A stretch of DNA of 64,000 bases from Geosiphon pyriformis uo1 (lineage: Eukaryota > Fungi > Glomeromycota): positions 62,946 to 126,945 of the forward strand of contig JAAOMT010000139.1 in the NCBI GenBank assembly GCA_016748015.1. The letters run 5' to 3'. How positions within the stretch are numbered: the stretch's first letter is position 1; each line of letters starts with the position of its first letter. Below are positions 12,340 to 63,000 of the stretch, piece after piece. Position numbers and translations under genes: made by a program. The notes below the pieces were generated by a model. The model was not told the DNA's origin and did not search any database. It worked only from the letters and a program-made list of their open reading frames with translations.

Positions 12340-12366
12340 TTTGAATTTGTTGTTGCTGTGTTATTT

Positions 12367-12382: not shown

Positions 12383-12384
12383 AA

Positions 12385-14879: not shown

Positions 14880-14940
14880 TTTAGTGCTTCCTGTGAGGTT
14901 ATAAATTCACAGAGACAGAGCACTCTGAAAATTCACAAAA

Positions 14941-22250: not shown

Positions 22251-22269
22251 GAACTATGATTCAAAAAAA

Positions 22270-22790: not shown

Positions 22791-22863
22791 TTAAACAGAA
22801 TAGATGGTAAAAATCTAATTTGAGATTTTTACATTTTTAAAAAATACCTCCAAACAGCCACAA

Positions 22864-24982: not shown

Positions 24983-24996
24983 AAAGAGAGAGATAA

Positions 24997-29766: not shown

Positions 29767-30736
29767 TGTTACCAGACAAAATTAAAGATATTGTTTAGCA
29801 TGAAATTACTCTTATAAATCTTATTATTAATTAGCATATATTATCATTTCAAATTATCACTTATTACATTAGCAAAATATCTGAAATTATCATTTAATTA
29901 ATAACCCAATTTGTACATAACACAAATGTAACCTAAGTGCGATGATCAATCATGCAATACCCTAAAATATGTAACATTTAAAAGTTTGCCAAAATTTGTA
30001 GAAATTCACCAAAATAATTGCTAGTTTACCGAAATATCTAATAGTTTGTAGAAATAACTTGTAGTTTGCCGAAATGTATCTTTAGTTCAGCAAAATTGTA
30101 GAAAAGAGCAAAGTTCAAGTTCATGGAATAGTGTTACAACAAGTTGTATAAAAAAAGAGCTTCTCTTTTCAAGAAAATATATCTTACTTTAGATTTATTA
30201 CTTAGAACCATTTCTATATACACAAAAAGAAATAAATATCAAATAATTTGAAAAACCAAATTCTTTAATTATTGCACTTGGAAAATCCCCAAAACCCAAC
30301 TAACGTTTTGAAATTGATTAGCTACCAATTTCAGTAACACTGTTAGTGACTCCAGGCCTGAATAGAAAATGTTTCCCTTAACAGAATTCTATTTCTTTTA
30401 CATTTCTTTTATTTTCTTATTATAATCATTAGGGTAGCTTATAGACGAGATTCCTGTAGAAGAGTTGACTTTCACAGCAAAGTAACTACACATTTTTAGT
30501 GAGCTTTCAGATGAGCAATTCCTAGGAAAGAGTTGATGTTTACTACAATGTAACTACACAAAGCAACTGGCACAGAATTGGCCATTCTACTTATAAGCCT
30601 AGCAGTTCAAATTATAGGAGATAATTTGAAGATAAAATTCAGTTATTGGAGGTTCAAACACTTCCCATAGTTATGAATTAACAGCATTACAACAAACATA
30701 CAAGAGCTAAGAAGAAACCAAAAACATCCAGTAACA
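29767..30736 (+). repeat. 5' LTR of element C
   Basis: TGTTACC..GTAACA; TATAAA after the U3 repeats. Confidence 0.93.
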
Positions 30737-30782
30737 TTTGGTGCTCTTCCACGGAAATAACACAGTAACAACAACTTCAAAA

Positions 30783-33700: not shown

Positions 33701-36370
33701 TACCCCCATGATGCTGAAATGATCTATGAACTTGCCATGGTTTTAATTAACAGAGGAACCAAAGAAGATGTCCTTCAAATAAAAAAAGCTGAATATATTA
33801 AATATACATTGGAATTAGCTGGATTCAATTATGAAGATGAAGTAAAAGTATACCACCAAATCACAAGTTACACCTACTCAATCCAAGAAGCTCAAATTCA
33901 ATGATTAGAGCAAATAAACATTAAATTATATAAGGAATGTATAATGCCATGCAATAAACAATAGTGTCCTGAATGCTATGCTCTTAGCATTCCATTGCTC
34001 AGCAAAAGCGATAAATACGAAATTGAATTCGGAGAACCTGAAGCAACAGAAAAAATTGAAACAACACCTATTTACCTCATTGAAAATCAGCCTGCTTTAC
34101 AACTCAAATACTTCAACAACAATGGACAAGGAATAAAACCGGAAAAAACACATGAAATTGATGCTGGATACAATCTACGATATCTAGAAAAAAACACTTT
34201 GGTTTTTCAACCAAATTCTCTTATCAAAATCAACTTCAAAATTGCCTTCGAAATTCCACCAGAAGCAATGATCCAAATCGCTTCACGATCATCATTGGCA
34301 AGCAAAGGAATCAATGTTAAAGGAGGAATTATAGATGCTGGATATACAGGAGACATTACAATCATGTTACAAAATGAAACCGATAAACTTTTTCAGATTG
34401 AACATGCTGAAAAAATTGCTCAAGCTATTTATTTACCCTTAATCAACATTTCAGGTTTACAATTAGTCAGTCAAAGAGAACAATTGGGAAAAAGTGGAAG
34501 AGGAACCAATGGTTTTGGTTCAACTGGACAATTCACAGTTCCAGTAAACATAGCTCTTAATGAACAAAGTAAATCTCACCAGATTCTACAACTTCCACAA
34601 CCAATTACTATTTCACCTTTTGGAGAACACCCTGAAATTTACACTTGTGAAAAGCCAACAACCACACAACAAATTTTTGAGTCCAATGAACGAATCTGCT
34701 TGGAACATAATATCTCAATCCCAAATATTTACATTCTAGAAGGAACAAAGAAAGTCCAAGTTACTTTTTACAACCCCAATAATTACCCCATAGTTTTATT
34801 AAATAACTTAAAAATTAGAGTTATTCACAGTAATATCTTTCAACAAAAATTACCCCAAACAGTCCCCAATTTCTCTGAAATTATTGGACATTCATTACCA
34901 AAAATCAACCCAAACCCCAGCTTTGAAAACTACCATGTTGTTATGGAAAAACTATCTTGAATCAACATAAAACAACTTGAACCACAACAACAGAGCCAGC
35001 TCAAAGAGCTAATTGTAGAATTTGCCAATATCTTTGCTGAAAACAACAATGACTTAGCAAGAACTGATTTGGTTCAACACCAAATCTATACAGGAGATGC
35101 CAAACCAAGGTGACAGCAAGCCTACCAAGTTGCTCTAGAAAGTCACCAATTTATCCGTGAAGAAGTACAATGGATGCTCAACAATAGGCTTATTCAACCA
35201 TCAATAAGTCTATAGGTCTCACCTATGGTCTTAGTTAAAAAGAAAAATAGAAAGATATGATTTTGTGTTGATTATTGACAACTCAACAGTATCACCATTG
35301 GAGATGCCTATCCCCTTCCCTGAATTGATAATATGTTGGATGTCCTTAGAAAATCCAAATACTTTTTAACATTAGATTTAGAGAATAGATATTGGCAAGT
35401 TGCTATGGATCCCGAAGATTGTCCCAAAACAGCATTCACCACTCAAGGAGAAAATTATGAGTTCAACGTAATGCCTTTCAGATTATACAATACACCAGCA
35501 ACATTCCAAAGACTCATGGATGTTGTTTACAAAGGTCTTCTTTGGAAATCAGTAGTTGTCTATCTCGATGATACTGATGTTTATTCACCATTTTTTGAGT
35601 TACACTTAAAACACTTGCAAGAAGTTTTTCAACGATTACAGAAAGCAGGATTGAAACTGAACATCAAAAAATGCTACTTCGGAAAAACAAGTTTGGCCTT
35701 TCTTAATTACATTGTTAGCAAAGATGGAATTAAACCAGATCCTGGAAAAATCAGCACTGTTAAAAACTTCAAGACCCCATGAAATACCACAAAATTAAGA
35801 GAATTTATTGGATTAACATCCTATTACCAAAAATTCATCAAAGGATTCTCAGAAATCGCAAAACCCCTCAACCAGCTCACTACTAAAAATGTCGAATATA
35901 AATGAACGGAAGAACACCAAAAAGCTTTTGAAATTCTCAAGGAAAAGCTGACAACAGCTCCAATTCTTGCCTATCCAGACTTCAGTAACCAATTTCAACT
36001 AGCTACAGACACTTTTTACACTGCCTTTGGTGCCATCTTATCACAATTAGATGACAACAGAAATGAGCAAATAATTGCTTATGCTAGCAGAACATTAAAA
36101 CCAGCTGAGAAAAACTACCCTGCCACAGAACTAGAAACAGCAGCCATAATTTGGGCCCTATATCACTTCAACCTTTATCTCAGGCCTAAAAAATTTGACA
36201 TTATCACTGATAATATTGGACTCAAATAGCTTCAAAACAAAAACACTCAGCTGAATGCCAAACAAACCTGATAGACAGGATTTTTAGCTAACTACTAATA
36301 CATTGTACATCACAAACCAAGAAAACTTCATACCAATGTTGATTGTCTCTCAAGAATGAGACAAGATTAG
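30783..36370 (+). pseudogene. Gag-PR-Cys-rich-dUTPase-RT-RNaseH polyprotein of element C
   Basis: ORF fragments from 31640 to 35333 are all in one frame; YLDD at 35561; ends RMRQD*. Confidence 0.92.
34105..34530 (+). CDS. dut: dUTPase domain within Pol (best-preserved copy)
   Basis: Five motifs in order: AGY(N)L, SRSSL, GIIDAGYTG, KIAQAI, RGTNGFGSTG. Confidence 0.93.
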
Positions 36371-36416
36371 AACATAAAACCAACACCCATTTGAATTAAC
36401 AACAAGACAACAAACA

Positions 36417-37802
36417 ATGAACCCCGAAAACTACAACAATCTTAAACAATATTTGGAGACATTAACAATTCCAACAGATTGGTCTGCAGATAAAAAACAC
36501 CAATTACAATAACAAGCCAAACAATACCTCTTACACAACAACATGATTTATTATTGAAACTTCAGAAACCCAGACAATTCACTCAGATTAATACAAGAAC
36601 ATAAAAAAGAAACTATTTTATATAACATACATTCAGATCCTTCATCAGCACACTTAGGAAAAAACAGCACCACCCAGAGAACACTAGAATATTACTTTTG
36701 GCCTTGAATGAGAAAAAACATTCATGAATACATTAAGTCTTGTGATAGTTGTCAAAGAAGAGAAAGAATTCACCCTACAGAACCTTTAAACCCAATTAAA
36801 GTTGGACAGCCTTTTGACTGAATTGGTATCAATTTAGTCGGACCACTACCTATTACAAACCAAGGAAACTGTTATATTGTAGTAGCTGTAGACTATCTCA
36901 CCAAATGGCCTGAAGCCAGAGCCATTCAACAAGCAAATACAAAATCAGTAGCAAATTTCATCTATGAAAACATCATTTGTAGACATAGATGCCCAATAGA
37001 ACTTTTATCTAATCAAAGAACACATTTTGTGAACAATTTAATCCAAGAAATTTATGAACAATTTAATGTCAAGAGACCATTATCTTTGCCCTACTATCCA
37101 CAAACAAATAGACTTGTAGAATATTTCAACAGAATATTGTGTGAATTATTAGCCAAAGTTTTAACCAATTTTGAGCAAGAATGGGATCTCTTTATTCCGT
37201 TAGTGTTACTAGCATATAGAACACTAAAACATGACACCACAAAAAACACACTATTTGACTTAACCTATGGAAGAACAGCAATGTTACCAATTAATTTTAC
37301 TGTGGAACCATACCCAGTATAGCCAATTAATAAAGAAAACTTTTAGGAAACACTTCGACGAAGAGCCTACAATCTTCTTAGCATATTGAAAGGAAAATGA
37401 CAAATAGCAGCCACCCATATTGAACACTCCCAAGCTTAACAAAAAGAATGGCATGACAACAAATTGCCACCAGTCACCAATAAATTTAAAATTGGAAACA
37501 AAATTCTCTTACACAGAACTAAAGCTGAAAAACAATGGAGTGGGAAATTTGAAAATAAATGAGATGGACCATTTTTTATCCATGAAGTTCTAGACAATAG
37601 ATCATATAAGCTAAGACTTGATGACAAAATCCTAGCAAAAGTTGCACATGGAGATCATTTAAAACACTATAATTCCAGAAACAATCCTAAACCATTAATT
37701 CCACAAATTAGTACACATTCCCTTTTAATTAATCCTGAAGATATTTCCCGAAATTTAGAACCAATAGTTGTCATTGAACAACCTTCCAACTTGAACACTT
37801 AA
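36417..37802 (+). pseudogene. Integrase of element C (separate ORF)
   Basis: Starts MNPENY; HSDPSSAH..CDSC; DDE core; GPF-like C-terminus. Confidence 0.9.
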
Positions 37803-37923
37803 CTTAAATTTATTATTATAGTTATCTCCTTATAATTTAGAAACAATCTCACAAAAACAAAGCAAAAATAACATAAAAACCCATACACCAAAAATAATTT
37901 TCTTTTATTTCAAATTGCTTATA

Positions 37924-38643
37924 ATGATTATTTCTCAAAACATTTAACAATTATCCTAAAAACTAATGTTAGCTTTAAAAACAATACCCAAATTATTCAT
38001 TACTGTTACTGGAAACTACATTAATTATACCTAAACAGAAGTAGTTACAAATTTAGCCCCAAATTCATGAAAATATTACCCATATAAGAAGAATACAAGA
38101 AGTTATTCTGAAATTCACCTGCCAGAACTTTTAAAGCTTGCTTTAAGAGAAAACTTAATGTTCATTCCTATTAGTATTCTACCAAATACTACTATTTAAC
38201 AAAAACTTCAACTGTGTCTTAATAAAGAAAACTACGACTATATTCTAATATATAGATATTTCTATATTGGAAAAACACTTCACGAACAAAAATGGGAGCT
38301 TACAGCAGTAAACTTCACAAAAGAAGCTATTTAAAAACAACTCCACAATGAATTCAAGACAACAGCTGGACCTACAAACAGTCATTATAAACTAAGAGCT
38401 GCTTTTAGACTTTATGACCTATTCCACACCTGTGAAAATGTCCTATAAAACCCAATTTTACAGCCTTTGAAGATTCAATACATTGGAAAGCTCACAGAAC
38501 TGAAATTTCAACAATTTTCAGACCAAATTTCTTCAATAATTTTGGATTATTATCTGGAAATTACAGACAGTACTTGGACTTTGATGGAGCTCAGTCTTAA
38601 GGAGGAGGTTATATTACCAGACAAAATTAGAGATATTGTTTAG
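37924..38643 (+). pseudogene. Accessory ORF3 of element C
   Basis: 720 bp, colinear with ORF3 of E; CAA>TAA-type stops. Confidence 0.8.
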
Positions 38644-38701
38644 CATAAAATTACCCTTATAAATCTTATCATTAATTAGCATATATTATCATTTCAAATT
38701 A

Positions 38702-38721
38702 NNNNNNNNNNNNNNNNNNNN
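38702..38721. other. Assembly gap (20 N) with a 234-bp contig overlap (38468-38701 = 38722-38955)
   Basis: N run flanked by identical sequence. Confidence 0.95.
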
Positions 38722-38865
38722 TGAAGATTCAATACATTGGAAAGCTCACAGAACTGAAATTTCAACAATTTTCAGACCAAATTTCTTCAATAATTTTGGA
38801 TTATTATCTGGAAATTACAGACAGTACTTGGACTTTGATGGAGCTCAGTCTTAAGGAGGAGGTTA

Positions 38866-39848
38866 TATTACCAGACAAAATTAGAGATATTGTTTAGCAT
38901 AAAATTACCCTTATAAATCTTATCATTAATTAGCATATATTATCATTTCAAATTATTACTTATTACATTAACAAAATGTCCAAAATTATCATTTAATTAA
39001 TAATCTAATTTGTACATAACACAAATGTAACCTAAGTGTGATAATTAATCATGCAATATCCCGAAATATGTAACATTCAAAAGTTCACCAAAATTTGTAG
39101 AAATTTGCTGAAATAATTGATAGTTTACTGAAATATCTAATAGTTTGCAGAAATAACTTGTAGTTTGCTAAAATATATCTTTAGTTCAGCGAAATTATAG
39201 AAAAGAGCAAAGTTCAAGTTCATGGAATAGTGTTACAACAAGTTGTATAAAAAAAAGCTTCTCTCTTCAAAAAAATATATCTTACTTTAGATTTATTACT
39301 TAGAACCATTTCTACACACACAAAAAGAAATAAATATTAAATAATTCGAAAAACCAAATTCTTTAATTATTGTACTTGGAAAATTCCCAAAACCCAACTA
39401 ACATTTTGAAATTGATTAGCTACCAATTTCAGTAAAACTGTTAGTGACTCCAGGCCTGAATAGAAAACATTTCCTTTAACAGAATTCTATTTCTTTTATA
39501 TTTTTTTTATTTTTTTTCTTTTATTTTCTTATTATAATCAATAGAGTAGCCTACAGACGAGATTCCTGTAGAAGAGTTGACTTTTACACCAAAGTAACTA
39601 CACATTTTTAGTGAACTTTCAGATAAACAATTCCTGGGAAAGAGTTGATGTTTACTACAACATAACTACATAAAGCAACTGGCACGGAATTGGCCATTCC
39701 ACTTATAAGTCCAGCAGTTCAAATTATAGGAGATAATTTGAAGATAAAATTCAGTTATTGGAGGTTCAAACACTTCCCATAGTCATGAATTAACAGCATT
39801 ACAACAAACATACAAGAGCTAAAAAGAGACCAAAAACATCTGGTAACA
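38866..39848 (+). repeat. 3' LTR of element C
   Basis: Repeat of 29767-30736. Confidence 0.92.
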
Positions 39849-44648: not shown

Positions 44649-46696
44649 TATTACCCAAGTAGAAAAACCAATTTAAAGTTATAAAAAAAATGTGACCAAA
44701 AACATAATGACATAAAATAACACAGAATAATACAAAAAAACACAGAATAATACAGAATAACTTAAAATAACATAATACAAAACTTGATAATATGTTATAA
44801 CACAAAATAACTAATTGAAACATAAGATAATTAGTAATAATATAGAAAAATAAGACAATAACAGAAATAGCAAAGCAATAACTAACAAGAATAAAACAAT
44901 TTTGTAAAACCAAAAAAAATGTATAAAAATGAGTAGTTGTAAAAGTTAAAAAAACAGCCAGAAAAGAATTAATTTTTCTTTTCCTTATAATTATTACATT
45001 TTATAAAAATAAAAGACTTATTTAAAAACTCAAAATCATTAATACATAGTTATCAATTATTTTATGCTTGAATTGAATTAATTCTTGTTTTATATTTTTG
45101 TTCCAGAACAAATGTTCTTAGTATAAATGTCTTGAACCCTTAATAATCTGAACCAATCACTCTTGATTATGACAATTGACAATATTAATTTATTTATTTT
45201 TATTTTTTTTTATTCTCTCTTATAAAGCAGCAACATAGAAAAATTGACTATCTGAAAATAGATTTTATAATAACCTGATAAAAAAAGGAAGCTTTTCCTA
45301 AGTTTGGATATTAATATTATTTTAATAGCTTATTAGAAGGGCAAAAAAACACAGCCAAATCCTAATAAATACACTTATTAGCTTGAAAAAGATAGCTTAT
45401 ATTCACATACAAGAAGTTACAATACCATAAAACATCTCTTTGTGCCTTATAACCAAAGAATTCCATGAGTAAATTCATATTAATCAAATAAATTTTTAAA
45501 GACTAATAATACTAATATACCAAAAAAGCCTACCAAAAAAAAATCATCAAAAGTTTTCTAAAAACCCAAATTTTGAGCACTAAACATTACTATTATACTT
45601 TACCTAGTTTACCTATAACATTTAGTGTTCTTTGTAAGATTATAAAATCCACAAAAACAGAGCACCCCAAAAATTTACAAAAGTAATGATTATTAAGACA
45701 GTAAAAAAAGATCACTTACCATATAGAAAATCCTTATTTCAATATTTTAGGAAAGACTTAGAGATACTATCAGAAACTATTAATGCAGAAACTAATTTCT
45801 GTTATTACTTGTATAACAAAATTAACTGTTTATTAAGCCAAGCAATGAACACAAAAAAACTCGAAAAACAAATTTATTAAAAGTTATTGACATACTTAAC
45901 AGAAATTACTACTTGAGTCATAGCTAAAACTCTTCATATAATTGATAAAAAAATTGAAGAATACATAACATAACAGTATTCTCAAGTAAAAGGAAAACAA
46001 ATAGCAAAGTCTGATTTTATAGAATCTGAGTCTGAATTTAATAATACAATAGTTGCATAAAAACAAGTCCAATTTACAGTTAACAAGAAATCAAGATTTT
46101 TTTTTTCAACTATTCTGTTATATTATCAGACATCAAAAAGTAGAATTTTATTTAACCAACTTATAGAAATACAAACAAAAACTCCTGGAACTCTGTATCT
46201 CTAAGGTTATAACAATCAAAATTCTTAGAAAAATACAAATTATTATTTTGAAATCTTATCTCAACAGCCAACCAACTTAGTGAAAGCATATTTTTTTGGG
46301 CACTACCACTAATACAGCTCCTAACAAAGTTAACAACCACTCCTACAAAAGAAATAACTATCTTGTTACTTATTAGTTTTAACAAAAAAAAACAACCAAC
46401 ATTAGCACTTAAAGAACAATATAATACACTACCACCAAACCTTTTGTTATTAGCAAGTCAACTACCTTTTGTTCCTTAAATAATAGCTTACTGAGATATT
46501 GTTAAATTGAAGAAATTCTCTAATAAAAAAGATAATATATATACTTGAATAGTAAAAGCCAAAAAAGCAACTATTGCTAACAATTAGGATAATACCAAAA
46601 TCATTTAAGTGCTGCTTTTTTTTTTGACAGGAACTACAGACTTCTGATACCAAAGTCTCAAAGAAAAACCAACTAGTTTTGCTGCTTTTAAACTTA
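44649..46696 (+). mobile_element. Truncated family-2 LTR element D (5' LTR 44649-45620, PBS, 5' gag)
   Basis: LTR and gag are homologous to element B; ends abruptly within gag. Confidence 0.85.
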
Positions 46697-49600
46697 AAAA
46701 CAACAGGTTATGGATCTTAAAAAGCATCAAACCATTATGCTTAATCAGATTTCTTTTCTATAAATACTTTGTATTTAGTTTTTACCATCTAAATTTTAAT
46801 ATGGTAAGTTGCTTTTAAGCTTTACACAAAATTTACAAATTTTTTACTGGCAATCTTAATACTATCAAAAATAAACACAGCTTTTAAGTATCATTTTTTG
46901 AACAAAAAGCCTTTACACAATATAGTATATACAATATTATCAGAAATACACAAAAAAAGCATCTGCAAAATCCAAAACAATGGTAGGCTTAAACTTAACA
47001 TGATACTCTACTGAAATAAAAGTGACCTAAGCAAGTTTTTGTGAATCTTAGAGTTTATTATACACACAAAAAAGTGATTAGAATTCTTTATTTTTCCACA
47101 ATAAAAACACAATATACTAGAATACTCCTTATATATAAATGCTTTTAAACAGTAACTAGTAGGTAATAGTGTAAAGCTTTTATAAAATACAAATACAAAC
47201 TAGTTGTAAACTTACTCATAAAACTCACTTTCATATGTAAATTAGGATGTAAAATTAAAACAATTAAACTCAACCCATATTGTTAATTAAGCTTTTATTA
47301 ACAACATCAAATGCAGATCTGATCTTCTAACAAACACAATAAACAATTCTAAAAATTCCATAAATAAAATAACAAATATTTTCAGATATTACCACATCAC
47401 CAATCCTAATAAATTTTTTTTTAACTAGAACAAAAAGCACTAAATTTAAACTAGTAGCTGAATTGGCTAGCTTATTAGTATATTTATTGCTCAAAATACT
47501 TAAATGTTTCTTAATTTTGTACCAAAAGATGTTAAGCTTCTTATCTCTAATAGAATTTACAATACTTTATCTTTTTATTTAATAACAATTGTAAAAATCT
47601 GGCAAAGCCAAATTCAACTTCATAGCACAAGCATTTAAAACAATCTGATTATTTAAATACATTACAACAGAACTGTCAACAAAAACACACTTCAAAGCCA
47701 AAACAATTGCCTGCAATTCTGTTATTATAGAGAAAACCAACTCATTAATATTAATACTAACTTTTACATTCAAGTTAAAAAAAAATGCAGCCATGTTATA
47801 TCTCATTTTATGCATATCCAAATTTCTTAAAAACCCATCTATATAGACATTAATGACATCTAAATCCATGTTAAAAATACACTGTATTATTTCAGAAATA
47901 TTACCAGAATTGCAAATGTTCAAAAATTCAGAATTAGCATCAAATAACTTAACAGAAAAAAGAGATACAAACCTGATCAAGAAATTACATATCAATTTAA
48001 ACCAACTAGGAACCAGATTTCTTAGATTGAGTTTTTTCTAATAGTAAAATGTTTTTTAATCAAAAACCAATTCTTTTTTATTATACAATTGATTAATAAA
48101 TGCAACTTTAAACTTCATAAGTAAACATAAAACCTTAAATTTTCCAAAACATTAAACATTAAAATGTTGCCTAAAAAATGCAATGCAGATAGAAAATTAT
48201 TATTAAATAATATATTATAATCCAAAAAAATCTTTATTACACTAATTAAAAAATTGTTAACCAGACTGATTCTTGGTTTTACAAGGTAATATAAAGGGTA
48301 AATAAAAGACCAACTCAGAATCTGCAAATCTAAAGATCTATAATCAAACAGACAACCAAAAATTCTACTAATATTTGAGAAATTCAACACAAAAGCTGTT
48401 TTATTCTTAAACTGTAATTGTTTAAATGACTTCAAATCATATAATAACAGATAATAAAAAATCTTGTTAAGAAAGTTCTTTGGCAAGCCAGCTTTTATTT
48501 TTAAATCTTTTTTATTAGCATATCTCACTTAATACATATATTTTTAAAGATAAAACTAAACTAAATTCTATAACTAACTATAAACTGCAATATAGCTAAG
48601 ACCAAATAAAAAAACTGCTTGTTTGAGACAGCTTTTTTTAAAACCAAATTAACAAAAAACCTGATATCTAAATAAGTCTTTGCTAAACTGAATTTGAATA
48701 AGCCTTTAAAAGACAAAAAATACCAAAATATCTATAAAACTTTCTTTTATATGCAACTAAAATAACAAATCACTAATTGATAATAAAATATTCTTAATTT
48801 TTTGATTGATAGAGATGATTATTATCTTATTATTATTGAATAAAATATCATTGATTTTAAAAAAACTATTTACAATATCTAAAATATATTAAGTAATTAC
48901 CTGACTACTTCTAATCTAAATTATGTTATTAACAAAAACACCAGTTATTAAAAATAAAGTTAATTTACCCTAACTCTTCAATCTGTTAGTCTTAACAACA
49001 AACTTAATATCAATACAGTAGTTATATAAACTCTTTTGTCATTTGACTTTACATAAGAAAGAATCATAAAAATTTTTTCAGAGCAAAGAAAAAAAAACTT
49101 CACCTTGGTCCAGACTATTGTACATATAGTACCCATTTGTTAAATTATAATTAATCATAATTTGATTGACCTTATTATCATAAATTCTCTAAAAAAATCG
49201 AATAAACAGCTTGCATATTTTAATCTTAACCAAACTATTTCTCAGATAATACCAAATTACAAAGTCATAAGCCTTTTACATATCTTGTAAGACTAACTAA
49301 AGCTTATGATTCTTTTCTAAAACATTCTCAACCACTGAACCAATGGCAAAAATAGAAAACTGAATAGCAATATCTTTTAATACAGAAAAATTGTCATTAT
49401 AAAGAACATTAAATTTATTATAAACCAAAAAGATTCTATTAGAAAGCAATTTGGAAAAAAATTTTTAAGTAGTCTTAATTAATATAATCAGTTTAGTATT
49501 AGTCAGAACACTTTTTTACTTATATAATTTAGAAATTATTGACACTTAAGTTTTTTTTTAAGGTTAAAATACAAATTTACATACTAAACAAAGATTTAAA

Positions 49601-50192
49601 AAATCCAAAAACATAATAAGTACTAAACTATTATAATGTTTCCATAATTTATTTATAATATCAGACAAATCAACAATCTTTCTATTAGATAGGTCTTTGA
49701 TCATACACACTAAGTTATTATAACTGATAATATTTATAATATTAGAAAATATAGCATTGTCAATATGAACCAAAGACAGATATTAATAATATCACAGATT
49801 AGGAATATTATTCAACACTTCTCTTTTTTTTGTCCAATCCTCCATAATAGCATCAACTTTAGATTTAATCTTGACAAAATTCAGAATTAAATCATTATTA
49901 GCAATTAAATAATCCAATATTACTTTATAGAAAAGATGCTTCAACACACTTTTGATTATATAGTTCTTGTTAACAGCAAAGCTCTTTATTTTTTTGTTGA
50001 TAGCAAATTTAATATTAACCTCCTTAATTCTTAAAAACTTAGCAAGTTTATAGACATAATATGATTTTCTTATATCATAAAAAACAAATCTTACACAATT
50101 AAAATCAGCACCCAAATCCAATAGAACCTGAATAATCAAAGCCTTATTATTGTTCAAAAATGTTCAGCAACTTATCAAGTAATTAAATTTGC

Positions 50193-51148
50193 TGTTACCA
50201 GACAAAATTAGAGATATTATTTAGCATGAAATTATCTTATAATTCTTATCATTAATTAGCATATATTATTGTTTCAAATTATCACTTATTACATTAGCAA
50301 AAATGTCCGAAATTATCATTTAATTAATAACCTAATTGCAATGATTAATCATGCAATACCCCGAACTATATAACATTCAAAAGTTCACCGAAATTTGTAG
50401 AAATTTGCCAAAATAATTGATAGTCACCGAAATATCTAATAGTTTGCAGAAATAACTTGTAGTTCGCCGAAATATATCTTTAGTTCAGCGAAATTGTAGA
50501 AAATAGCAAAGTTCAAGTTCATAGAATAGTGTTATGACAAGTTGTATAAAAGAAGAGCTTCTCTCTTCCAGAAAATGTATCTTACTTTAGATTTATCACT
50601 TAGAACTACTCCTACACACACAAAAAAAAATAAATATAAAATAATTCGAAAAACCAAAAACTTTTTAATTATTGCACTTGGAAAATTTTCAAAACTCAAC
50701 TAACGTTTTGAAATTGATTAGCTACCAATTTCAATAAACTGTTAGTGACTTCAGGCCTGAATTGAAAACGTCTCTCTTAACAGAATTCTATTTCTTTTAC
50801 ATTTTTTTTATTTTCTTTTTATTTTCTTACTATAATTATTAAGGTAGCCTACAGATAAGATTCCTGTAGAAGAGTTGACTTTCACAGCAAAGTAACTACA
50901 CATTTTTTTTAGTGAGCTTCCAAATGAGCATTTCCTGAGAAAGAGTTGACATTTACTACAATGTAACTACATAAAGCAACTGGCATGGAATTGGCTATTC
51001 TACTTATAAGCCCAGCAGTTCAAATTATAGAAGATAATTTGAAGATAAATTCAGTTACTGGAGGTTCAACCACATTCAGAAAACATGAATTCACAGCAAA
51101 CAAGCATCGACAATATTTAAGAAAAGAGACCAAAAACCTCCAGTAACA
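50193..51148 (+). repeat. 5' LTR of element E
   Basis: TGTTA..TAACA; repeat of 59086-60069. Confidence 0.95.
50383..50550 (+). promoter_or_regulatory. U3 array of ~6 GTTCGCCGAAAT-like motifs followed by TATAAA (50545)
   Basis: Motif array and TATA box present in all family-1 LTRs. Confidence 0.6.
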
Positions 51149-51193
51149 TTTGGTGTTCTCCCACAGTAACAACACAGCAAAAACAACTTCAAA

Positions 51194-54100
51194 GTGGTGA
51201 CCACACCAGACGCAACAACTCTAGAGTATTACCAGTCAATTTACACTTACTGCAAGTAAAGATTCAACATTTCAGACAGAATTGAAGTTGTCAAGAAATC
51301 AGTATACCAATATATTGAAAACCGCATCAACAATTATCTTTTTGGAAATTACAATATCTCAGAAGTTAGAAGCAACCTTTACAATAATTTAGCACACTAT
51401 TCACAATTGGGAACTGAAGACCTTAACAGTAAAACACTTGCCACTTACTTTTACGAACTTAATTTTAACATTATCAAATACTGTGAAGAAATATATCCAG
51501 TGCAGTTTCAATACATTATTGATTTTGAATCAGAAACAGAAACAAGCAACAAAGGCAAAAACAAATTGAAGCAATACTTAAGAACCACCCCAAATACTCC
51601 AACACTACTGAAAACAACTGCCAAATATTTACAAACACCTGAACAAGGAACCAGTTCAAAATTTCCACTTACTAACACACTTTTTCCAGCTTTACTTGCA
51701 CAAGCACAAACACCTAATTCACCCTTGAATTGATTTGCAAGACCAGAAGATTTTATATCACTCAGAAGTCTCACCAAACAACAAGAACCCCTGCAAATTA
51801 ATTCCAATCTTCTTGATTTTCTAGCTGAAAATCAAAGTGAACACTCTGAGACAGCAGCAAACAAAGAAAACGACTCTGAAATAACTAAAAAAGAATCAAT
51901 AAACAGTGAAAACAAAGAAGACAAAATGACAACATACATTGCAAAAATTCCTGAATTCAATGGAGAAGATATTGAGACCAGTTCCCAAGAATGGCTTGAC
52001 CAAGTTACTAAAGCTGGAAATGCAAATGGATGGAATGCTGCCAGAATGTTAAGAACAATTCTCTACTTTCTCAAAAGAACAGCAGGAGAATGGTTTGAAA
52101 ACTTGGCTGCCCCATTCAATGATTGGAACACTTTCAAAGCAGTCTTTCTTGAACAGTTCACCGACAATAATACCTCTATCACCCTTCGCAATCATTTTCG
52201 AAATATCAAACAAGAACCCTCTGAATCTGTTATAACTTATATTAGGAAATTCAACAAACTTCTCAGATGAATTCGTCAACTCGAAACAAATAATTATTAT
52301 TTCGATGCTCAAATCTTGGATCAATTTATTGCTGGTTTAAAAGATAAACTAATTAAAAAGGTTTGCCTACATGTGCCAGAAGATTTAAACTCTGCCATAC
52401 AGCATGCAAAAAGATATGAAATGGCCATGGAAGAGGCCAATCGCACAAAACTTGTAAATTTGACAATTAGAGAAACCAGCTTAGCAGCTGAGAAAAAAAT
52501 TGACCAATTCACAAAGAAAGTTGAAAACTATTTCACCAATTAACAACAACAGCAACCTCAAAGATATCAACCACCCCAAAGATGAAATCAAAATAATTTT
52601 GCACCACTTTCCAATAACCAGTCTCAGAATTGCCATTACTGTGAAATCTCTGGCCACTGGAAAAGAGATTGCAGAAAGCTACAATGAGACCAACAAAATA
52701 GGAGTAATCAATGTTATCCTTCACCACAGCAATCTTATTATCAACCACCACCACCAGCTTACTATCTACCAAGACTCCAATACCAAAATAACTATTATCA
52801 GCCTGCCCCACAGCCAATCTAACAGCAATACCAACAACTACTTACACAACATTATCAAGTACCTGCTTGAAAACTGATTACACAAAATCAATTCACACCA
52901 CAAAACTGATACCAAGTAAACAACAATAGAATCAGTTCAAACAACCAATTGGTTCCCCAAAATTCCACTCAACCAAGATCCAACCACTACTACATTCAAC
53001 CCAGTTATTTAACAATGCCAGAAGAACAAGATTTTTACCATACTGCACCCTTGGAAGGTAAAGCTGCAGCACAATAACAAAACTCTTCCTATACTCTTAC
53101 TACAATCCCACCAGCCAGAATTGCTAAAAACGCTAACCTTTTAGATATATTCCCTTTTGAGTTCAAAGCAAATGAGTCACCATTCCTGCTTAGCAATGCA
53201 GCCGCCAATGAACAAAAAGCAATCATGGCTATGTATACTAAAGCAGAAGTCGAAAGAAAGACAATTTGCTTGATCCTAAACAGTGGATCCGCCAGAAGCA
53301 TTATCACAAACCAGTTAATACAACAGTTGAAGAAAAATGTTGACCGACCAGCTCAAACAGTAATTGTCACTGCCAATAGCATGAAAAAGACCCCAGTAGG
53401 AGAAATTGACAATTTTCCATTTACTCTTAATGGAATCACCATTCCAGTCAAAGTTTTTGTAATGGATGCATCCCAGTACTAAGCTCTCATCAGAAATGAT
53501 TGGCTTCAAAAAGCCAATGCTAATTTGAATTGGGAAACACAAAAGTTAACAATCTCCTACCAAGGACAATATGCCTGGGTACCTGCCACTTGTGGTACAT
53601 TCAACAAATGCTCTGAAAAAGCCCCAGCTTTTGAATTTAAACTGGAAGAGGAAAAACCCCTCATTGAAACATTCATGGCTTTTGGATCAATGTCTAACTG
53701 GGCCAATGAAACAGAACAAAAACATTTTACCCCACACTCTGAACCCGAAACCTCTGGATGGAATATCTCTTACTCAAAACCCGAACCAAGGAAACAACAC
53801 CCCTATATTCCCCTTAAATGTAAGGACTATCACAAGAAACTATCATCAATGGGAGCCTGTATTTCACCTGAAGAAAAATATGAAAATCATACTTGTTATT
53901 ACTGCAAGGCTTGCCACAGAGAACGATGGGACCATCTAATAAAAAAGAACAGAAAATAGGACAATACTCCTTGTTTGACTTGTGGAGATATGCTACCAGA
54001 AAAATGCAATTGGATTGATGTAGCCATGAGAGGAGGAGTCTGTGATCAGACCTGCCAATATGCTTTATCAATTTCAGAAAAAGTAAAAAGAGGAACACCC

Positions 54101-56812
54101 TTTAATGTGGCATACAACAGTGCTCTTAACAAACTTTATTACTACCCCCATGATGCTGAGATGATTTTTGACCTAGTAATAGCATTAATTAATGGAGCTA
54201 CCAAAGAAGATGTTTATCAAATAAAGGAAGCAGAATACATTGAATACATCATGGAATTAGCTGGATTCAATTACAAAGATGAAGTAGAAGTCTACCACCA
54301 AATTGCAAGTTACACCTACCCAACTCAAGAAGCTCAAATTTAATGATTAGAGCAAATGAACATTAAACTATGTAAAGAATGCATTATGCCTTGCGATAAA
54401 CAGTAGTGTCCTGAATGCTACGCTCTTAGTATCCTCTTGCCCAGCAAAAATGATGAGAACAAAATTGAATTTGGAGAATCTAAAGCAATGGAAGAAATTG
54501 AAACAACACCTATCTACCTTATCAAAAATCAGTCTGCCTTACAACTTAAATACTTTAACAACAATGGACAAGAAATAAAACCCAAAAAAGCACACGAAAT
54601 TGATGCTAGATATGACCTAAGATATCCAGACAAGGTTACTTTTGTTCTCAAACCCAAATCTCTTACAAAAATCAACCTCAAAATTGCACTTGAAATCCCA
54701 CCAGAAGCAATGGTTCAAATCATCTCCTGGTTCTCTCTGGCAAGCAAAGGAATTAATATCAGAAGAGGAATAATTGATGCTGGATATACTGGAGACATTA
54801 CAGTAATGCTTTAAAATAAAACTAACAAACCATTCAAGATTGAACATGCTGAAAAAATTGCCCAAGCTATTTACTTACTCTTAATCAACATTTTGGGTTT
54901 GCAAGTAGTTAATCAAAGAGAACAATTAGGAAAAAGTGATAGAGAAATCCAAGGTTTTGGTTCAACTGGATGATTCACAGTTCCAGTTAATATAACTCTT
55001 AACACACAGAACAAATCCCACCAGATTTTCAGACTTTCACAACTAATTACCATCTCACCTTTTGGAAAACATCCGGAAATCTATACCTGTCCAAAGCCAA
55101 CAACCAAACAACAAATTTTTGAGTCTAATGAACAAGTCTGCTTGGAACATAATATTTTGATCCCAAATATTTATATTCCAGAAGGAACAAAGAAAGTCCA
55201 AGTTACTTTTTACAACTCCAATAATTACCCCATAATTTTATTAAATAATTTAGAAATTGGAGTTATTCACAGTAATATATTTCAACAAGAATTACCACAA
55301 ACAGTCCCTGATTTCTCTGAAATTATTAGACATTTACTACCAAAAATCAACCCAAACCCCAGCTCCGAAAACTACCATGTTGTCATGGAAAAACTATCTT
55401 GAATCAACATGGAACAACTTGAACCACAACAACAGACCCAGCTCAAAGAGCTAATTGTAGAATTTGCCGATATCTTCACTGAAAACAACAATGACTTAAG
55501 AAGAACCAATTTGGTCCAACACCAAATTTATACAGGAAATGCCAAACCAAGAAGACAACAAGCATATCGAGTTGCTCCAGAAAGCCACCAATTCATCCGA
55601 GAAGAAGTACAACAAATGCTTAACAATAGGCTCATTCAACCCTCTATGAGTCCTTGGGCTTCACCTGTAGTGCTAGTTAAAAAGAAAAATGGAAAGATCC
55701 GATTTTGTGTTGACTATCAACAATTCAACAGTATTACAATTAGAGATGCCTATCCCCTTCCTCAGATTAATGACATGTTAGATGCTCTTGGAAAATCCAA
55801 ATACTTTTCAACACTAGATTTAGAAAGCGGTTACTGGCAAGTTGCTATGGATCCCAAAGATTACCCCAAAACAGCATTCACTACCCAAGGCAGAAATTAT
55901 GAGTTCAATGTAATGCCTTTCGGATTATGCAATGCACCAGCAATGTTTCAGAGATTAATGGATGTTGTGTACCAAAAACTTCTTTAAAAGTCAGTAGTCG
56001 TTTATCTTGACAATACTGATGTTTATTTTCCATCATTCGAATTATACTTAAAACACCTGTGAGAAGTTTTTCAACGATTATGAAAAGCAGAACTAAAACT
56101 CAATATCGAAAAATGCTACTTTGGAAAAACAAGCCTGGCCTTCCTTGGTTATATCATTAGTAAAGATGGAATCAAACCAGACCCTGAAAAAATTAGTGTT
56201 GTCAAAAACTTCAAAACTTCTTAAAACACTACAGAACTAAGAGGATTCATAGAATTAGCATCCTACTATCAAAAGTTTATTAAAGAATTTTCGGAAATTG
56301 CAAAACCCTTCAACCAGCTCACCACCAAAAACGTTGAATACAAATGGACTACCGAACACCAAAAAGCTTTTGAAATTCTCAAGGAAAAACTAACAACAGC
56401 TCCAATTCTTACCTATCTGGATTTCAGCAACTAATTTCAACTAACTACAGATGCTTTGTATACTGCCTTTGGTGCCATCTTATCACAACTAGATGACAAT
56501 GGAAATGAGCGAGTAATTGCTTATGCTAGCAGAACATTAAAACCAGTTGAGAAAAACTATTCTGCCACAGAACTAGAAACAGCAGCCATAATTTGGGCCC
56601 TATACCATTTCAACTTTTATCTTAGGCCTAAAGAATTCGATATTATCACTGATAATATTGGACTCAAATGGCTTCAGAACAAAAATACTCAGCTGAATAC
56701 AAAACAAACCTGATGGACAGGATTTCTAGCAAACTATCGATACATAGTACATCACAAACCAGGAAAACTCCACACCAATGTTGACTGTTTCTCCAGAATG
56801 AGACAAGATTAG
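51194..56812 (+). pseudogene. Gag-PR-Cys-rich-dUTPase-RT-RNaseH polyprotein of element E (single frame, ~1870 codons, point-mutation stops only)
   Basis: ORFs 51407, 51926, 52316, 53225, 53525, 53975, 54437, 55142, 55409 and 56456 all share one frame. Confidence 0.93.
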
Positions 56813-56864
56813 AAAAACACAAAAACCAACACTCAACTTAACCAACCAAAAGAGCCAACAACCA

Positions 56865-58276
56865 ATGAATTTGGAAAACTACAACGATCTCAAACAATAT
56901 TTGGAAACATTAACAATCCCAACAGATTGGTCTCCAAATGAAAAACATCGACTACAACAACAAGCCAAACAATATTTTCTACACAACAACATTATTTATT
57001 ATCGAAATTTCAAAAACCCAGACAAACCACTCAGATTAATACAAGAACAAGAAAAAGAGACTATATTATACAACATGCACTCAGATCCTTCATCAGCCCA
57101 CTTCGGAAAAGACAGCACCACTCAAAGAACACTAGAATACTACTTTTGGCCTCGAATGAAAAAAGACATTCACGAATATGTCGAATCTTGTGATAGTTGT
57201 CAAAGAAGAGGAGGAACTCGCCCTACAGAATCTTTAAACCCAATCAAAGTTGGACAGCCTTTTAACAGAGTTGGTATCAATTTAGTCAGACCACTACCTA
57301 TCACAAACCAAGGAAACCATTATATTGCAGTAGTTGTAGACTATCTCACCAAATGGCCTAAAGCCAGAGCCATTCAATGGGCAGATGCAAAATCAGTAGC
57401 AAACTTTATCTATGAAGACATTATTTGTAGACATAGATGCCCAATAGAACTTTTATCTGATTAAGGAACACATTTTGTGAACAATTTAATCCAGAAAATT
57501 TGTGAACGATTTAATATCAAGAGACTATTATCTTCACCCTATCATCCACAAACAAATGGACTTATAGAATGGTTTAACAGAATATTGTGTAAATCATTAG
57601 CCAAAGTTTCAACTGATTTTGAGCAAGAATGGGATCTCTTTATTCCATCAGTGTTACTAGCATATAGGACACTAAAACAAGATACCACAAAACACACACT
57701 ATTTGATTTAACTTATGGAAGGATGGCAATGTTACCAATTAGTTTCACAGTGGAAACATACCCAGCACAATCAATCGATAAAAACAATTTTCAAGAAATG
57801 CTTCAGCAAAAAGCCTACACTCTGCTTAGCACATTAGAAGGAAAACAATGAATAGCAGCCACCCATATTGAACACTCCCAAGCTCAACAAAAAGAATGGC
57901 ATGATGACAAATTGCCTCCAGTTACCAATGAATTTAAAATTGGAAACAAAGTTCTCTTACACAGAACTAAAGCTGAAAAACAATGGAGTAGAAAATTTGA
58001 AAATAAATGAGATGGACCATTCTTTATTCATGAAGTTTTAGGCAATGGATCATACAAGCTAAGACTTGATGACAAAATTTTAGTAAAAGTTGCACATGGA
58101 GATCGTTTGAAACACTATAATTCCAGAAACAATCCTGAACCATTAATTCCACAAATTGGTACACATTTCCCTTTAATCAATCCCAAAGACATTCCCCTTT
58201 AATCAATTCCAAAGACATTCCCCAAAATTTAGAACCAATAGTTGTCATTGAACAGCCTCCCAACTTGAATACTTAA
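56865..58276 (+). pseudogene. Integrase of element E (separate ORF, +1 frame)
   Basis: ORFs 56865-57464 and 57477-57851; H2C2 zinc finger and DDE motifs. Confidence 0.92.
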
Positions 58277-58397
58277 TTTAAATTTATTATTATAGTTATC
58301 TTCTTATAATTTAGAAACAATCTTACAAAAACAAAACAAAAATAACATAAAAACTCATATATCAAAAATAATTTTCTTTTATTTCAAATTGCTTATA

Positions 58398-59117
58398 ATG
58401 ACTATTCCTTAAAACATTCAACAATTATCCCAAAAACTAATGTTAGCTTTAAAAACAATACCTGAATTATCCATTACTGTTACTGAAAACCACATTAATT
58501 ATATCCAAACAGAAGTAGTTACAAATTTAGCCCCAAATTTATGAAAATATCACCCGTATAAGAAGAACACAAGAAGCTATACTGGAATTCACTTGCCAGA
58601 ACTTTTAAAGCTTGCTTTAAGAGAAAACCTAATGCTCACTCCAATTAGTATTCCACCAAATACTACAATTCAACAAAGACTTCAACTGTGTCTCAATGAG
58701 GAAAACACTGAATATCCTCCAATCTATAGATATTTTCACATTGGAAAAACACTCTACGAATGGAAACTGGAACTTACAACAGCAAACTTCACAAAAAAAG
58801 CTATTCAGAAACAACTCCACAACGAATTCAAGACAACAGCTGGATCAACAAACAGTCGCTACAGGCTCAGAGCTGCTTTTAGACTTTATAATCTATTCCA
58901 CACCTGTAAAAACATACTACAAAACCCAATTTTTCAATCTTTAAAGATTCAATACATTGGAAAGCTCACAAAACTGAAATTTCAACAATTTTCAGACCAA
59001 ATTTCTTTAATAATTTTGGATTATTATCTGGAAATAACAAACAGTACTTGGACTTTGATGGAGCTCGATCTTGAGGAGGAGGTTATGTTACCAGATAAAA
59101 TTAGAGATATTATTTAG
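58398..59117 (+). pseudogene. Accessory ORF3 of element E (239 aa; two transition-type stops)
   Basis: ATG at 58398 is in frame with ORF 58593-59117; runs through the PPT into the 3' LTR. Confidence 0.82.
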
Positions 59118-60069
59118 CATAAAATTATTTTATAATTCCTATCATTAATTAGCATATATTATCGTTTCAAATTATCACTTATTACATTAGCAAAAATGTC
59201 CGAAATTATCATTTAATTAATAATCCAAATTGTACATAACACAAATGTAACCTAATTGCAATGATCAATCATGCAATACCCTGAACTATGTAACATTCAA
59301 AAGTTTGCCGAAATTTGTAGAAATTCACTGAAATAATTGATAGTTCACTGAAATATCTAATAGTTTGCAGAAATAACTTGTAGTTCACCAAAATGTATCT
59401 TTAGTTCAGCGAAATTATAGAAAATAGCAAAGTTCAAATTCATAGAATAGTGTTATAACAAGTTGTATAAAAGAAGAGCTTTTTTCTTTGAGAAAATGTA
59501 TCTTACTTTAGATTTATCACTTAGAACCACTCCTACACACACAAAAAAAAATAAATATAAAATAATTCGAAAAACCAAAAACTTTTTAATTATTACACTT
59601 AGAAAATTCTCAAAACTCAACTAACGTTTTGAAATTGATTAGCTACCAATTTCAATAAACTGTTAATGACTTCAGGCCTGGATTGAAAATGTCTCCCTTG
59701 ACAGAATTCTATTTCTTTTACATTTTTTTTATTTTTTTTTTATTTTCTTACTATAATCATTAGGGTAGCCTACAGACAAAATTCCTGTAGAAGAGTTGAC
59801 TTTCACAGCAAAGTAACTACACATTTTTTTTAGTGAGCTTCCAGACAAGTATTTTCTGGGAAAGAGTTGACGTTTACTACAATGTAACTACATAAAGCAA
59901 CTGATACAGAATTGGTTATTCCACTTATAAGCCCAGCAGTTCAAATTATAGGAGATAATTTGAAGATAAATTCAGTTATTGGAGGTTCAACCACATTCAG
60001 AAAACGTGAATTCACAGCAAACAAGTATCAACAACATTTAAAAAAAGAGACCAAAAACCTCCAGTAACA
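59086..60069 (+). repeat. 3' LTR of element E
   Basis: Repeat of 50193-51148. Confidence 0.95.
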
Positions 60070-63000
60070 TCACCATTAAAACCCATATGTAAAGACTTTA
60101 CAATTTTTAAAACCAAAATTTTCAACTTATGAAATCTGGAAAAATTCTTTGTAAAAACACCATCAAAGTTCTTAAACCAACTTTTCTTAAAAATTTTATT
60201 GACTAAAAGACATACTGTCTTACAAACAGTATTCTACATTGTATTTAGATTCAAAAACCTCTTGAATATAACAAACTTATTAAAGAACAACACCACATTA
60301 GCTGCTATAGCATCTTTGAATTTATTCTATTTTACTTTATTAGCATCTTTAATATTAAACTTTCAATGATTCTTATTTATTTGCTTGTACAGAAGGTTTA
60401 GCTGTACATCTAACAAGTTACTCAAATCTACAAAAATAGAAACAGCCTGATGATTAGTGTTAAAATAATCTTTAATATTTATAATATCATAATCTATTAC
60501 TGTATTAATTAAGTTTGAAGAAATAAATACATAGTCAATTGTTTTCTTAATACCTCTAAAATTTTTTCAAGTTGATGTTTTTGCAGCTGAACTCCCAACC
60601 AATGAATTAACCAGCTCTAAGCTAAGACATTTTTTAAAATTAACACATTTGTAGAAACTATCTTTATTAAAATCACTACTTAAAATAATGAAAAAAGACT
60701 CATTTACAGTTTTTGAAATTAAAGAATTGACTTTATCAGCCTAAAATAAATGCACAGCCAGTATTATATCAGCATATAGCCACAGAATTAAAACAAAAAA
60801 TCTATTTTTAAAAAGCAATCTAACAGAAAAAAGATGACCAAGAACTTTAGAAACCCTATATACATGTTATATTAAGACAATATTTATAATAATTGCAACA
60901 TCAGAACCCAAGTAACCAAAGTCTAAACCAGAAACAAAAAAACAAATACCATTAAACTTATTAGCAATTCACAAGTAGATCTTTTTTTTTAATTTTGTTT
61001 TAGTAATAATTGAAATTAAATTGTTCATATTTTTGTGTTAACAAATAATATCTTCTTGTTTTACAGGATTGTTCATATTCCTAATATTACATGTGGCAAC
61101 TTTTTATATTTAATCAGTCATTAATGAGAAAAAATATTTAAATTTAAACTTTTATTGTCCAATTTGATTAACAATTCCAAAACCATATCTGATAAATTAT
61201 TCAATTTCTTCCCAAACTTCTTAATAATTAATTAATTCAAAGATATTATTCTTGTTACAGTTTTATTACAAATGACCACACCTGAATCTTTATTTATTAC
61301 TATATTTGTCTTTTGATTCTGTGATAAAAGAATTATTAATGGTTAATATTCAGAATTAGACTAAGAAATTATTGGCTTGAATGCATTCAACCTCTTAGCC
61401 AGTTCACTAACTTGCTCTATAAAGCTGACAAAACTATACTCAAAAGTGGCAAATCTGTTATTTATATCCAAAAAAACCAGTAGAAAAGATTTTGTATTCA
61501 AAAATGAACCAACATCAAAAGAAACTACAGGCTTTACATAAAAAGAGAAACCACTAACAACTTAAGCCCAAGTTTTATCTTTAAACAAAACTGGACAAGT
61601 AATTGGTATTTGTTTCTTTTTATATATACTTACCAGACAATTTTGATCCTGAGAACTAATTATCTGCTTACTGTAATCACCAAAATTCTTATTTACTAAA
61701 CATATACCAAAAACATAATCAAATTGTTTATATTAAGCATAACAGATTAAAAAAAGACCAGTCCAATGCAGAATTACATCTTTAAAAACTGAAACAGAAC
61801 CAATAACAGTTTTTTTAAATGTTTTATCTCGAAAATAAATTACAGTACACTTATCATGCACATATAAACTTGGATTATGGCCAATAAAACAAGTTTTTTT
61901 ATTATAAAATTCCATCAAATTAGAAAGATTATAGACTGTGGTACCAACTGGCAAAATATATAATAAAGTTCAATACTAATCTCTTAATATCCATAATTGT
62001 TTATTATAGCCAATACTATTCATACAGAATCCTTACTTATAAGAACTAATTACTTGAATATAATCAAACTAACAACTTCAAATAACTTAAACTCAACTAA
62101 AGTTTTTTGTTAAAAACCAATCAGTTATATTTTAATTAAAACTACTTTATCAAATTTGGAAAAAACTGATTCCACAGCCAATTTAAGAAGATTGACTGGA
62201 ATTTTTTTGACAATAATTTTCCAATTTATACAGTTGTTTGTTTTCTTAATATTAATATTAACAAGAATTTTCTTATTGATAGCCAATTCTTTAGTTTTTT
62301 GCAAATTTAAATCCAAAGTAAAAAAAGACCTAATTATCTTTAAAAATTTTGAAAAAGTAGAAGCTCTTCCAAAACCATCAATTTGATAGAAAATTTTTTT
62401 AATTGCAATTAATTTATTATCATTAGTTTTGTCTAGTACAGTAGATAGTTCAATATTTAATATGAAAAATTTAACTAGCTTAAAATTGCACCTATTTAAA
62501 ACATGTAACTTAACTGTTAACAAATGCTTAACACCAAAAAACTTAGGAACTGAAAGTGTTAAAATATCATCATTATTATTGCTTAAATTATTGAAAAATT
62601 TTTTTTTTGGTTAGCTACTTAAAACATATGTTCTGATATGTGTTTTTTTAGATGTGATATTGATTATTATATTATTAACTTCTGAAGCATTTAAATCTAT
62701 ATAGCTGGTTTCTTTTACAACTGTATTTTTCATGTTCTTTAAGTCTGATATATCACTGATATGGCTTGTTTTGCTATTTATTTTACTGTCTTAAGATCTC
62801 ATAGGCTTGTTATCATTAGTAATTATATCTGTAAAATTTAAAAGATCAGTAGACATCTCAATCATATTGTCAACAATAGTAGGTTTCTTGGATTTTTTAT
62901 AAGAAACACTACATGAGTAAATACTTATTAAACATTTGGTTTTGACATTAAACTAAGTCTTTAATCTAACTAAACTAAATACCAACCCATTAGCAAAAAA

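Follow-up and report, generated by a model that had tools for sequence, protein, structure and literature searches.

ORF3, a conserved third gene behind a separately encoded integrase in Ty3/gypsy elements of Geosiphon pyriformis

An open reading frame that follows the integrase gene in LTR retrotransposons of the glomeromycotan fungus Geosiphon pyriformis, here named ORF3, is confirmed as a real and conserved third gene of Ty3/gypsy elements, and no earlier description of it was found. Extra ORFs after pol are as such already known; what is new is an accessory protein family in an unusual Ty3/gypsy lineage whose reading frames point to a tricistronic organization. A literature search, mainly of open-access sources, returned no account of the ORF3 family, nor of a separate integrase in these elements, and the available part of PMC13524379 held nothing further on fungi.

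The window, meaning the whole stretch of 64,000 nucleotides analysed here (contig JAAOMT010000139.1, positions 62,946 to 126,945), is AT-rich and carries four LTR elements, namely A (3476-13289, minus strand), B (about 13838-26036), C (29767-39848) and E (50193-60069). Pfam matches on these elements comprise Ty3-type Gag, protease, dUTPase, reverse transcriptase (RT), RNase H and integrase. Element E has the characters by which Ty3/gypsy elements are recognized, with LTRs, a primer-binding site (PBS), a polypurine tract (PPT), the order gag-PR-RT-RH-IN and a Ty3-like RT, the nearest solved RT being that of Ty3 (E 9e-30, versus 5e-12 for foamy virus). The parts of element E are the following:

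50193 to 51164, plus strand: 5' LTR (to 51148) and PBS-like sequence (51151-51164)
51260 to 56812, plus strand: gag-pol in a single frame, with capsid, CCHC knuckle, protease, Cys-rich domain, dUTPase, RT and RNase H, then a stop
56813 to 56864, plus strand: A/C-rich 52-nt spacer from the RNase H stop to the integrase ATG
56865 to 58276, plus strand: integrase, a separate ORF with its own ATG, comprising zinc finger, rve core and SH3
58277 to 58397, plus strand: G-poor ORF3 leader (2% G, no ATG, a CAA-rich stretch)
58398 to 59117, plus strand: ORF3, 239 codons with 2 internal stops
59051 to 59082, plus strand: conserved DNA ending in the PPT (59073-59082), read in different frames by ORF3 lineages
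59086 to 60069, plus strand: 3' LTR, 93.8% identical to the 5' LTR; ORF3 ends 32 nt inside it

The integrase is not encoded within the Pol polyprotein. In A, C, E and the metagenome contig L001, RNase H ends at a stop and integrase begins at a new ATG, which in A, C and E is in a different frame and in L001 lies behind an in-frame stop; an RNase H stop and a frame change likewise precede the integrase of B. The spacers ahead of the separate integrase are found at 56810-56867, 36364-36420, about 6660-6730 (minus strand) and about 20730-20760 in the window and at 772-801 in L001; they are short and A/C-rich, with lengths of 24-52 nt in E and L001, and the ORF3 leader resembles the integrase spacer in being G-poor (2-4% G). 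No conserved splice acceptor was seen before integrase or ORF3, the spacer of L001 having no AG and the AG positions ahead of ORF3 differing among elements. The integrase ends in SH3, without a chromodomain match, and in E its end is shifted by a 26-nt duplication near 58163-58223. Judged from these frames, the element appears to be tricistronic, with gag-pol, integrase and ORF3 as separate ORFs. Integrase and ORF3 might, as a guess, be started by reinitiation on CAA-rich leaders, and a subgenomic RNA may be an alternative route to their translation. Between protease and dUTPase, at 53750-54460, lies a Cys-rich domain of about 240 residues with several CxxC pairs, which is under purifying selection and has no Pfam match.

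A preliminary description of this DNA had reported an ORF of about 236-239 codons after integrase in A, C and E, and translation recovered both the frame and its copies. In E, ORF3 runs for 239 codons before its terminal stop and is interrupted in frame by stops at codons 5 and 49; the copy in C is 79% identical to it and that in A 65%, and the homologue in B is frameshifted once, near 24630-24650. The further copies in the window are:

37924 to 38643, plus strand: ORF3 of C, 7 internal stops
4425 to 5132, minus strand: ORF3 of A (subfamily 1b), 2 internal stops
about 24225 to 24982, plus strand: ORF3 of B (family 2), frameshifted, ending at the PPT

ORF3 is present in four of the four full elements of the window, as befits a family-wide additional ORF (aORF) found in most copies, and the copies of A, B, C and E are all dead. 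Relatives of the E protein with an intact 239-aa frame and identity of up to 90% occur in G. pyriformis; because such intact natural copies exist elsewhere in the genome, they were used instead and a repaired consensus was needless. The homologue previously claimed for B was borne out, the motifs quoted for it being present and the ORF3 profiles of families 1 and 2 aligning significantly (hhalign probability 94.6%, E 6.9e-8, 102 columns).

In a test on three DNA copies only (A, C and E), pairwise NG86 dN/dS of ORF3 was 0.22 for E-A and 0.20 for C-A, where permutation gave null values of 0.66 and 0.61, and in these two pairs 0 of 300 spectrum-preserving permutations were as low as the observed value. 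The close pair E-C gave a weaker signal (dN/dS 0.41; 19 of 300 permutations as low), as is to be expected where neutral decay prevails. The helical core alone gave 0.16-0.20 against A, and the other genes gave 0.17-0.21 (gag), 0.26 (integrase) and 0.11-0.15 (RT). The dN/dS comparison proposed in the preliminary description thus returned values that are not near 1 (0.20-0.22 against A, with a null of about 0.6), and ORF3 is under purifying selection comparable to that on gag, with no sign of positive selection in the comparison of A, C and E. Synonymous divergence is uneven along 51260-59085 (dS for E-A: RT 1.5, integrase 0.53, ORF3 0.91; for E-C: gag 1.05, integrase 0.25), which suggests recombination between subfamilies.

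Within the LTR pairs of the window identity is 85-97%, and nearly all differences are transitions, with C-to-T changes in all contexts (CpG 0.45, CpA 0.28, CpC 0.23, CpT 0.16). Stops in gag-pol at 53957, 54344 and 54404 are common to A, C and E and appear to result from the decay of tryptophan codons rather than to mark gene ends; together with the C-to-T changes in all contexts, they suggest broad cytosine methylation or RIP-like decay of the elements. Other features of the window include a 2-kb insertion at about 21705-23743 that splits the B integrase and contains tandem repeats of 108 nt and 51 nt as well as a minus-strand frame of 146 codons; at 38468-38955, at the end of the C ORF3, a 234-nt sequence duplicated exactly around a gap of 20 N, which is probably an assembly artefact; a B-like LTR with a gag start at 44649-46695; and other diverged inverted repeat pairs (26306-28909 versus 48597-50108 and 60100-61092).

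It had been proposed that ORF3 reads through the PPT into U3. This holds for family 1, by 6-10 codons only (10 in E and C, 6 in A), but not for B-type lineages, whose ORF3 terminates at the PPT in a different frame; in B itself the stop codon, 24980-24982, falls where the PPT begins, and the LTR is never entered. In family 1 and in the L001 and P0172 types, an ELSLEE-type C-terminal peptide crosses the PPT and continues for 6-10 LTR codons, whereas in family 2 and two other lineages ORF3 ends in GAQF or GAQY at the PPT. In A, C, E and L001, translation of that DNA in the neighbouring frame gives a GAQS-like peptide followed by a stop, the other-frame stop at 59072 being common to A, C and E. 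Since a conserved cis sequence is here read in two frames, the ORF3 tail was likely dictated by the DNA rather than by protein function. The analogy formerly drawn with nef or bel stands as far as position is concerned but extends to no further parallel, the U3 overlap being short and lineage-limited; as it is not family-wide, there is no real nef-like parallel.

Searches for relatives returned 199 ORF3 homologues, of which the 120 listed are all G. pyriformis gene models, and a family-2 search found 17 proteins. When an ORF3 profile was searched against 1.84 billion representatives, 73 matches were obtained, of which 26 distant ones were read and 10 looked up; these ten comprise eight from Geosiphon and two metagenome proteins, with no named organism besides Geosiphon among them. 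None of the 26 distant matches read (of 73) resembled a host gene, and several were gene models fused to integrase or Gag. Grouped by eye, the ORF3 proteins fall into seven or more lineages (identity about 20-37%), two of them metagenomic. A profile built on the metagenome forms retrieved only 4 proteins, and more distant fungal relatives may lie beneath the detection limit. The intact ORF3 of L001 follows integrase and runs into an LTR, and that of a second metagenome contig, L002, comes after an integrase tail plus one more ORF. This extra ORF (L002 425-811), between integrase and ORF3, encodes 128 aa and has no Pfam match. In two further Geosiphon lineages the position of ORF3 is known only from gene models fused to the integrase tail, and the statements on context behind integrase cover the lineages other than those of P0163 and P0180. 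No relatives were found in viral contigs or in prokaryote genome contigs. Pfam, PHROGs and NCBIfam gave nothing convincing for the ORF3 proteins (best stray E 5e-4), and the best PDB match by sequence had an E of 0.32.

AlphaFold2 models built from intact natural copies (the full model from P0172) reached pLDDT 80 and 84. In these models, ORF3 is predicted to start with a small alpha/beta module, followed by a flexible linker that holds the PY motif and by a helical core; these parts correspond to the following positions in E:

58398 to 58505, plus strand: predicted N-terminal helix and beta-hairpin (P0172 model H11-24, E29-34, E37-42, pLDDT about 75), alignable across lineages
58542 to 58565, plus strand: basic PY motif in a low-confidence linker, a candidate PY-NLS with the R/H/K-X2-5-PY consensus
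58704 to 59033, plus strand: all-helical core common to all lineages (pLDDT about 90)
58791 to 58898, plus strand: helix, G-x-(T/N)-N turn and basic helix, a candidate helix-turn-helix (HTH) from alignment and sub-threshold ParB/KorB/sigma matches

The ORF3 proteins contain 0-3 cysteines and, judged by hydropathy only, nine of nine have no hydrophobic segment (maximum 19-residue Kyte-Doolittle window 0.39-1.29), in agreement with the earlier claim that transmembrane stretch and signal peptide are lacking. Of the basic (R)KYHPYKK motif noted before, KYHPYKK is present in E, but the R before it is a stop there. The suggested likeness to a PY-NLS gains from conservation, a PY with upstream R/K/H occurring in 5 of the 6 lineages covering the site and one lineage having no PY. 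The pattern R/H/K-X2-5-PY, given in the consulted part of PMC2408616 as the shared C-terminal part of PY-NLSs, is matched in 5 of 9 ORF3 proteins. With pLDDT below 50 at residues 47-54, the motif lies in a flexible region, and the basic residues around it come mostly after the PY. It is a candidate nuclear import signal of ORF3.

Fold comparisons gave hints below the level of significance. Foldseek with the ORF3 models found no match at E<=0.001 in PDB or BFVD, and a fold search against 48,161 chains returned nothing significant, the best Z being 4.2 for the full model and 5.6 for the core alone, both with unrelated chains, where the usual background is 7-8. The top 30 of the 48,161 chains for the full model included Spo0J (Z 3.6, rmsd 5.3, 96 aligned), KorB (Z 3.3, rmsd 5.0, 94 aligned), ParB (Z 3.3, rmsd 3.0, 59 aligned), SigmaF (Z 3.6, rmsd 2.4, 56 of 57) and the RptR repressor (Z 3.3, rmsd 3.3, 68 aligned), which cover the ORF3 core and are tied in Z with unrelated helical chains; ParB-type chains were not among the top 50 for the core-only model, nor in a second look. 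Pfam DUF1016_N matched weakly (E 0.02-0.12) in 2 of 22 members, over the same helices as the ParB-type matches, and not at all in the two intact metagenome proteins. By hhalign, ORF3 against DUF1016 gave a probability of 4.6%, with 3 of 40 shuffles higher, and the core against an 8-sequence DUF1016 alignment 9.6%, above 60 of 60 block shuffles; a five-sequence ParB alignment gave 0.15%, with 12 of 60 shuffles as high, in a comparison that also missed its DUF1016-ParB positive control. The HTH_ParB model weakly matches the N-terminal domain of two plasmid DUF1016/YhcG genes (L017 and L018; E 1e-4 and 2e-4 per plasmid), so the ParB and DUF1016 hints point to one superfamily. Both the ParB/KorB DNA-binding domain and DUF1016_N (PF17761) share with ORF3 a helix, glycine turn and basic helix followed by short helices, whereas the ParB CTPase and the PD-(D/E)XK nuclease domain are missing in ORF3 and all scores are sub-threshold. 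The chances for and against an HTH-type core, as predicted from these models, are about equal. A homodimer prediction for ORF3 scored 0.00 and yielded no verdict.

Candidate targets were noticed in U3:

59304 to 59392, plus strand: near-palindromic 9-mer repeats of U3 (TTCGCCGAA type) at 20-bp spacing, candidate binding sites, upstream of a TATA-like box at 59466

The TTCGCCGAA-type near-palindrome is present in 3-4 copies in six of six family-1 LTRs, compared with a shuffle mean of 0.21-0.26 (maximum 3), the pattern having been derived from the same LTRs in which it was counted. The LTRs of B and L003 have no copies of this type and carry other repeats instead, AGAATAACAC and TTGCCCTAG. U3 repeats are commonly bound by host factors, which could equally bind those described here.

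For most extra ORFs of LTR retrotransposons no function is known, and examples of LTR regulators encoded by the element itself come mainly from complex retroviruses. Foamy virus Tas/Bel1, HTLV Tax and lentiviral Nef share with ORF3 a 3' position in the genome; the targets of Tas and Tax are LTR elements, those of Tax being 21-bp repeats in U3. The ORF3 element differs from these viruses in its Ty3-like RT, the lack of env and the short, lineage-limited U3 overlap, and no likeness to Nef, Bel1/Tas or Tax occurs among the listed Pfam, PDB and BFVD matches of ORF3. In the accessible parts of PMC7264820 and PMC11963269, additional ORFs between pol and the 3' LTR are described from plant and fungal elements (Grande GENE23, RIRE2, Retand TRP28 and Boty); GENE23 localizes to the nucleus, DNA binding is proposed for TRP28 and a regulatory role for such ORFs. 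Like ORF3, these aORFs are family-wide, follow pol and are conserved as other element genes are. However, the plant and Botrytis ones are antisense and the sense ones reviewed there are Env-like with transmembrane segments, whereas ORF3 is sense, soluble, without a Pfam family (best E 0.02) and placed after a separate integrase. Bdelloid Ty3/gypsy elements, according to the portion of PMC5408684 consulted, likewise bear a dUTPase and a sense non-Env ORF3, but these ORF3s are GDSL esterases or DEDDy exonucleases, neither of which is matched by the fungal ORF3 in Pfam. CERV of the C. elegans element Cer1, compared with ORF3 by description only (PMC10309623, in part), resembles the proposed ORF3 as a nuclear accessory protein of a Ty3/gypsy element; it is made from spliced RNA and acts in RNA export.

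The leading guess, which is possible though somewhat short of an even chance, is that ORF3 acts as a nuclear LTR-binding activator or anti-silencing factor of its own element, a reading that rests on the sub-threshold fold hints and the U3 repeats. ORF3 would be translated separately from its own ATG behind the G-poor leader, by reinitiation or from a subgenomic RNA, would enter the nucleus via the PY motif by the Kap104/transportin route and would bind DNA through its helical, HTH-like core; the lineage-specific cognate U3 repeats would be its targets, and LTR transcription would be sustained by activation or by relief of methylation silencing. Against this count the PY proline, kept in 55 of 91 family-1 copies and so less often than most prolines, and the acidity of the two intact metagenome proteins (pI 5.4-5.9). 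A more specific form, in which ORF3 would be a prokaryote-type (ParB/DUF1016-like) HTH transactivator or anti-silencing factor, tuned in each lineage to its own U3 repeat within a tricistronic "complex" fungal lineage and helping to drive the LTR expansion of Geosiphon, is rather unlikely.

Other roles have to be weighed against that of an LTR-binding factor. Because the element needs three separate initiations, RNA-level control is plausible, and ORF3 might be a Rev/CERV-like regulator that binds element RNA and governs its export or selects which of gag-pol, integrase and ORF3 is translated; RNA-binding proteins commonly carry a PY-NLS. CERV of Cer1, being nuclear and an accessory protein encoded by a Ty3/gypsy element, offers a precedent (PMC10309623, in the part seen), and with the core-only model the first-ranking match is to the RNA enzyme PNPase, over a helical stretch (Z 5.6, rmsd 2.0, 59 aligned). 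However, the PNPase match falls short of background, a conserved splice acceptor was not seen ahead of integrase or ORF3, and the alignment contains no arginine-rich RNA-binding motif common to all lineages, so that such a regulator is considered fairly unlikely. An integrase outside Gag-Pol needs another route into the particle, and a cofactor of the particle or pre-integration complex could deliver it to the particle or to the nucleus, or could take the part of a chromodomain in directing integration. The absence of a chromodomain match in an integrase that ends in SH3, the location of ORF3 after integrase in every lineage with context in view and its candidate import motif are in line with such a cofactor, which is nevertheless doubtful, as ORF3 diverges far faster than integrase (L001 versus E: integrase 59%, ORF3 about 30%), a behaviour more like that of a regulator than of an obligate partner.

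Fast divergence with the fold kept would also suit a suppressor of host defence that works through protein contacts with the small-RNA or methylation machinery and not by LTR binding, and the elements are under heavy C-to-T decay in a genome of which LTR elements make up 41.2% (PMC11952901, in the part consulted); nevertheless, no likeness to a known suppressor appeared in any search run and positive selection left no sign, making this role quite improbable. Although ORF3 occupies the position of env, an identity as Env-like or movement protein is highly improbable, and so is the capture of a host gene that serves no function, in view of the missing hydrophobic segment, the 0-3 cysteines, the purifying selection and the 26 distant matches read (of 73), none of them like a host gene. 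These readings are already largely refuted, nine of nine proteins having no hydrophobic segment by hydropathy. No Env fusion-protein fold or family occurs among the listed Pfam and fold matches, the model being mostly helical and soluble, and the Env or host-protein match considered in the preliminary description did not appear in the Pfam and fold searches.

Natural copies with intact frames, a confident model and candidates for both the import motif and the lineage-specific target repeats make the role of ORF3 testable with cognate and non-cognate pairs, and the separately encoded integrase raises the question of how it is translated and packaged in these elements.
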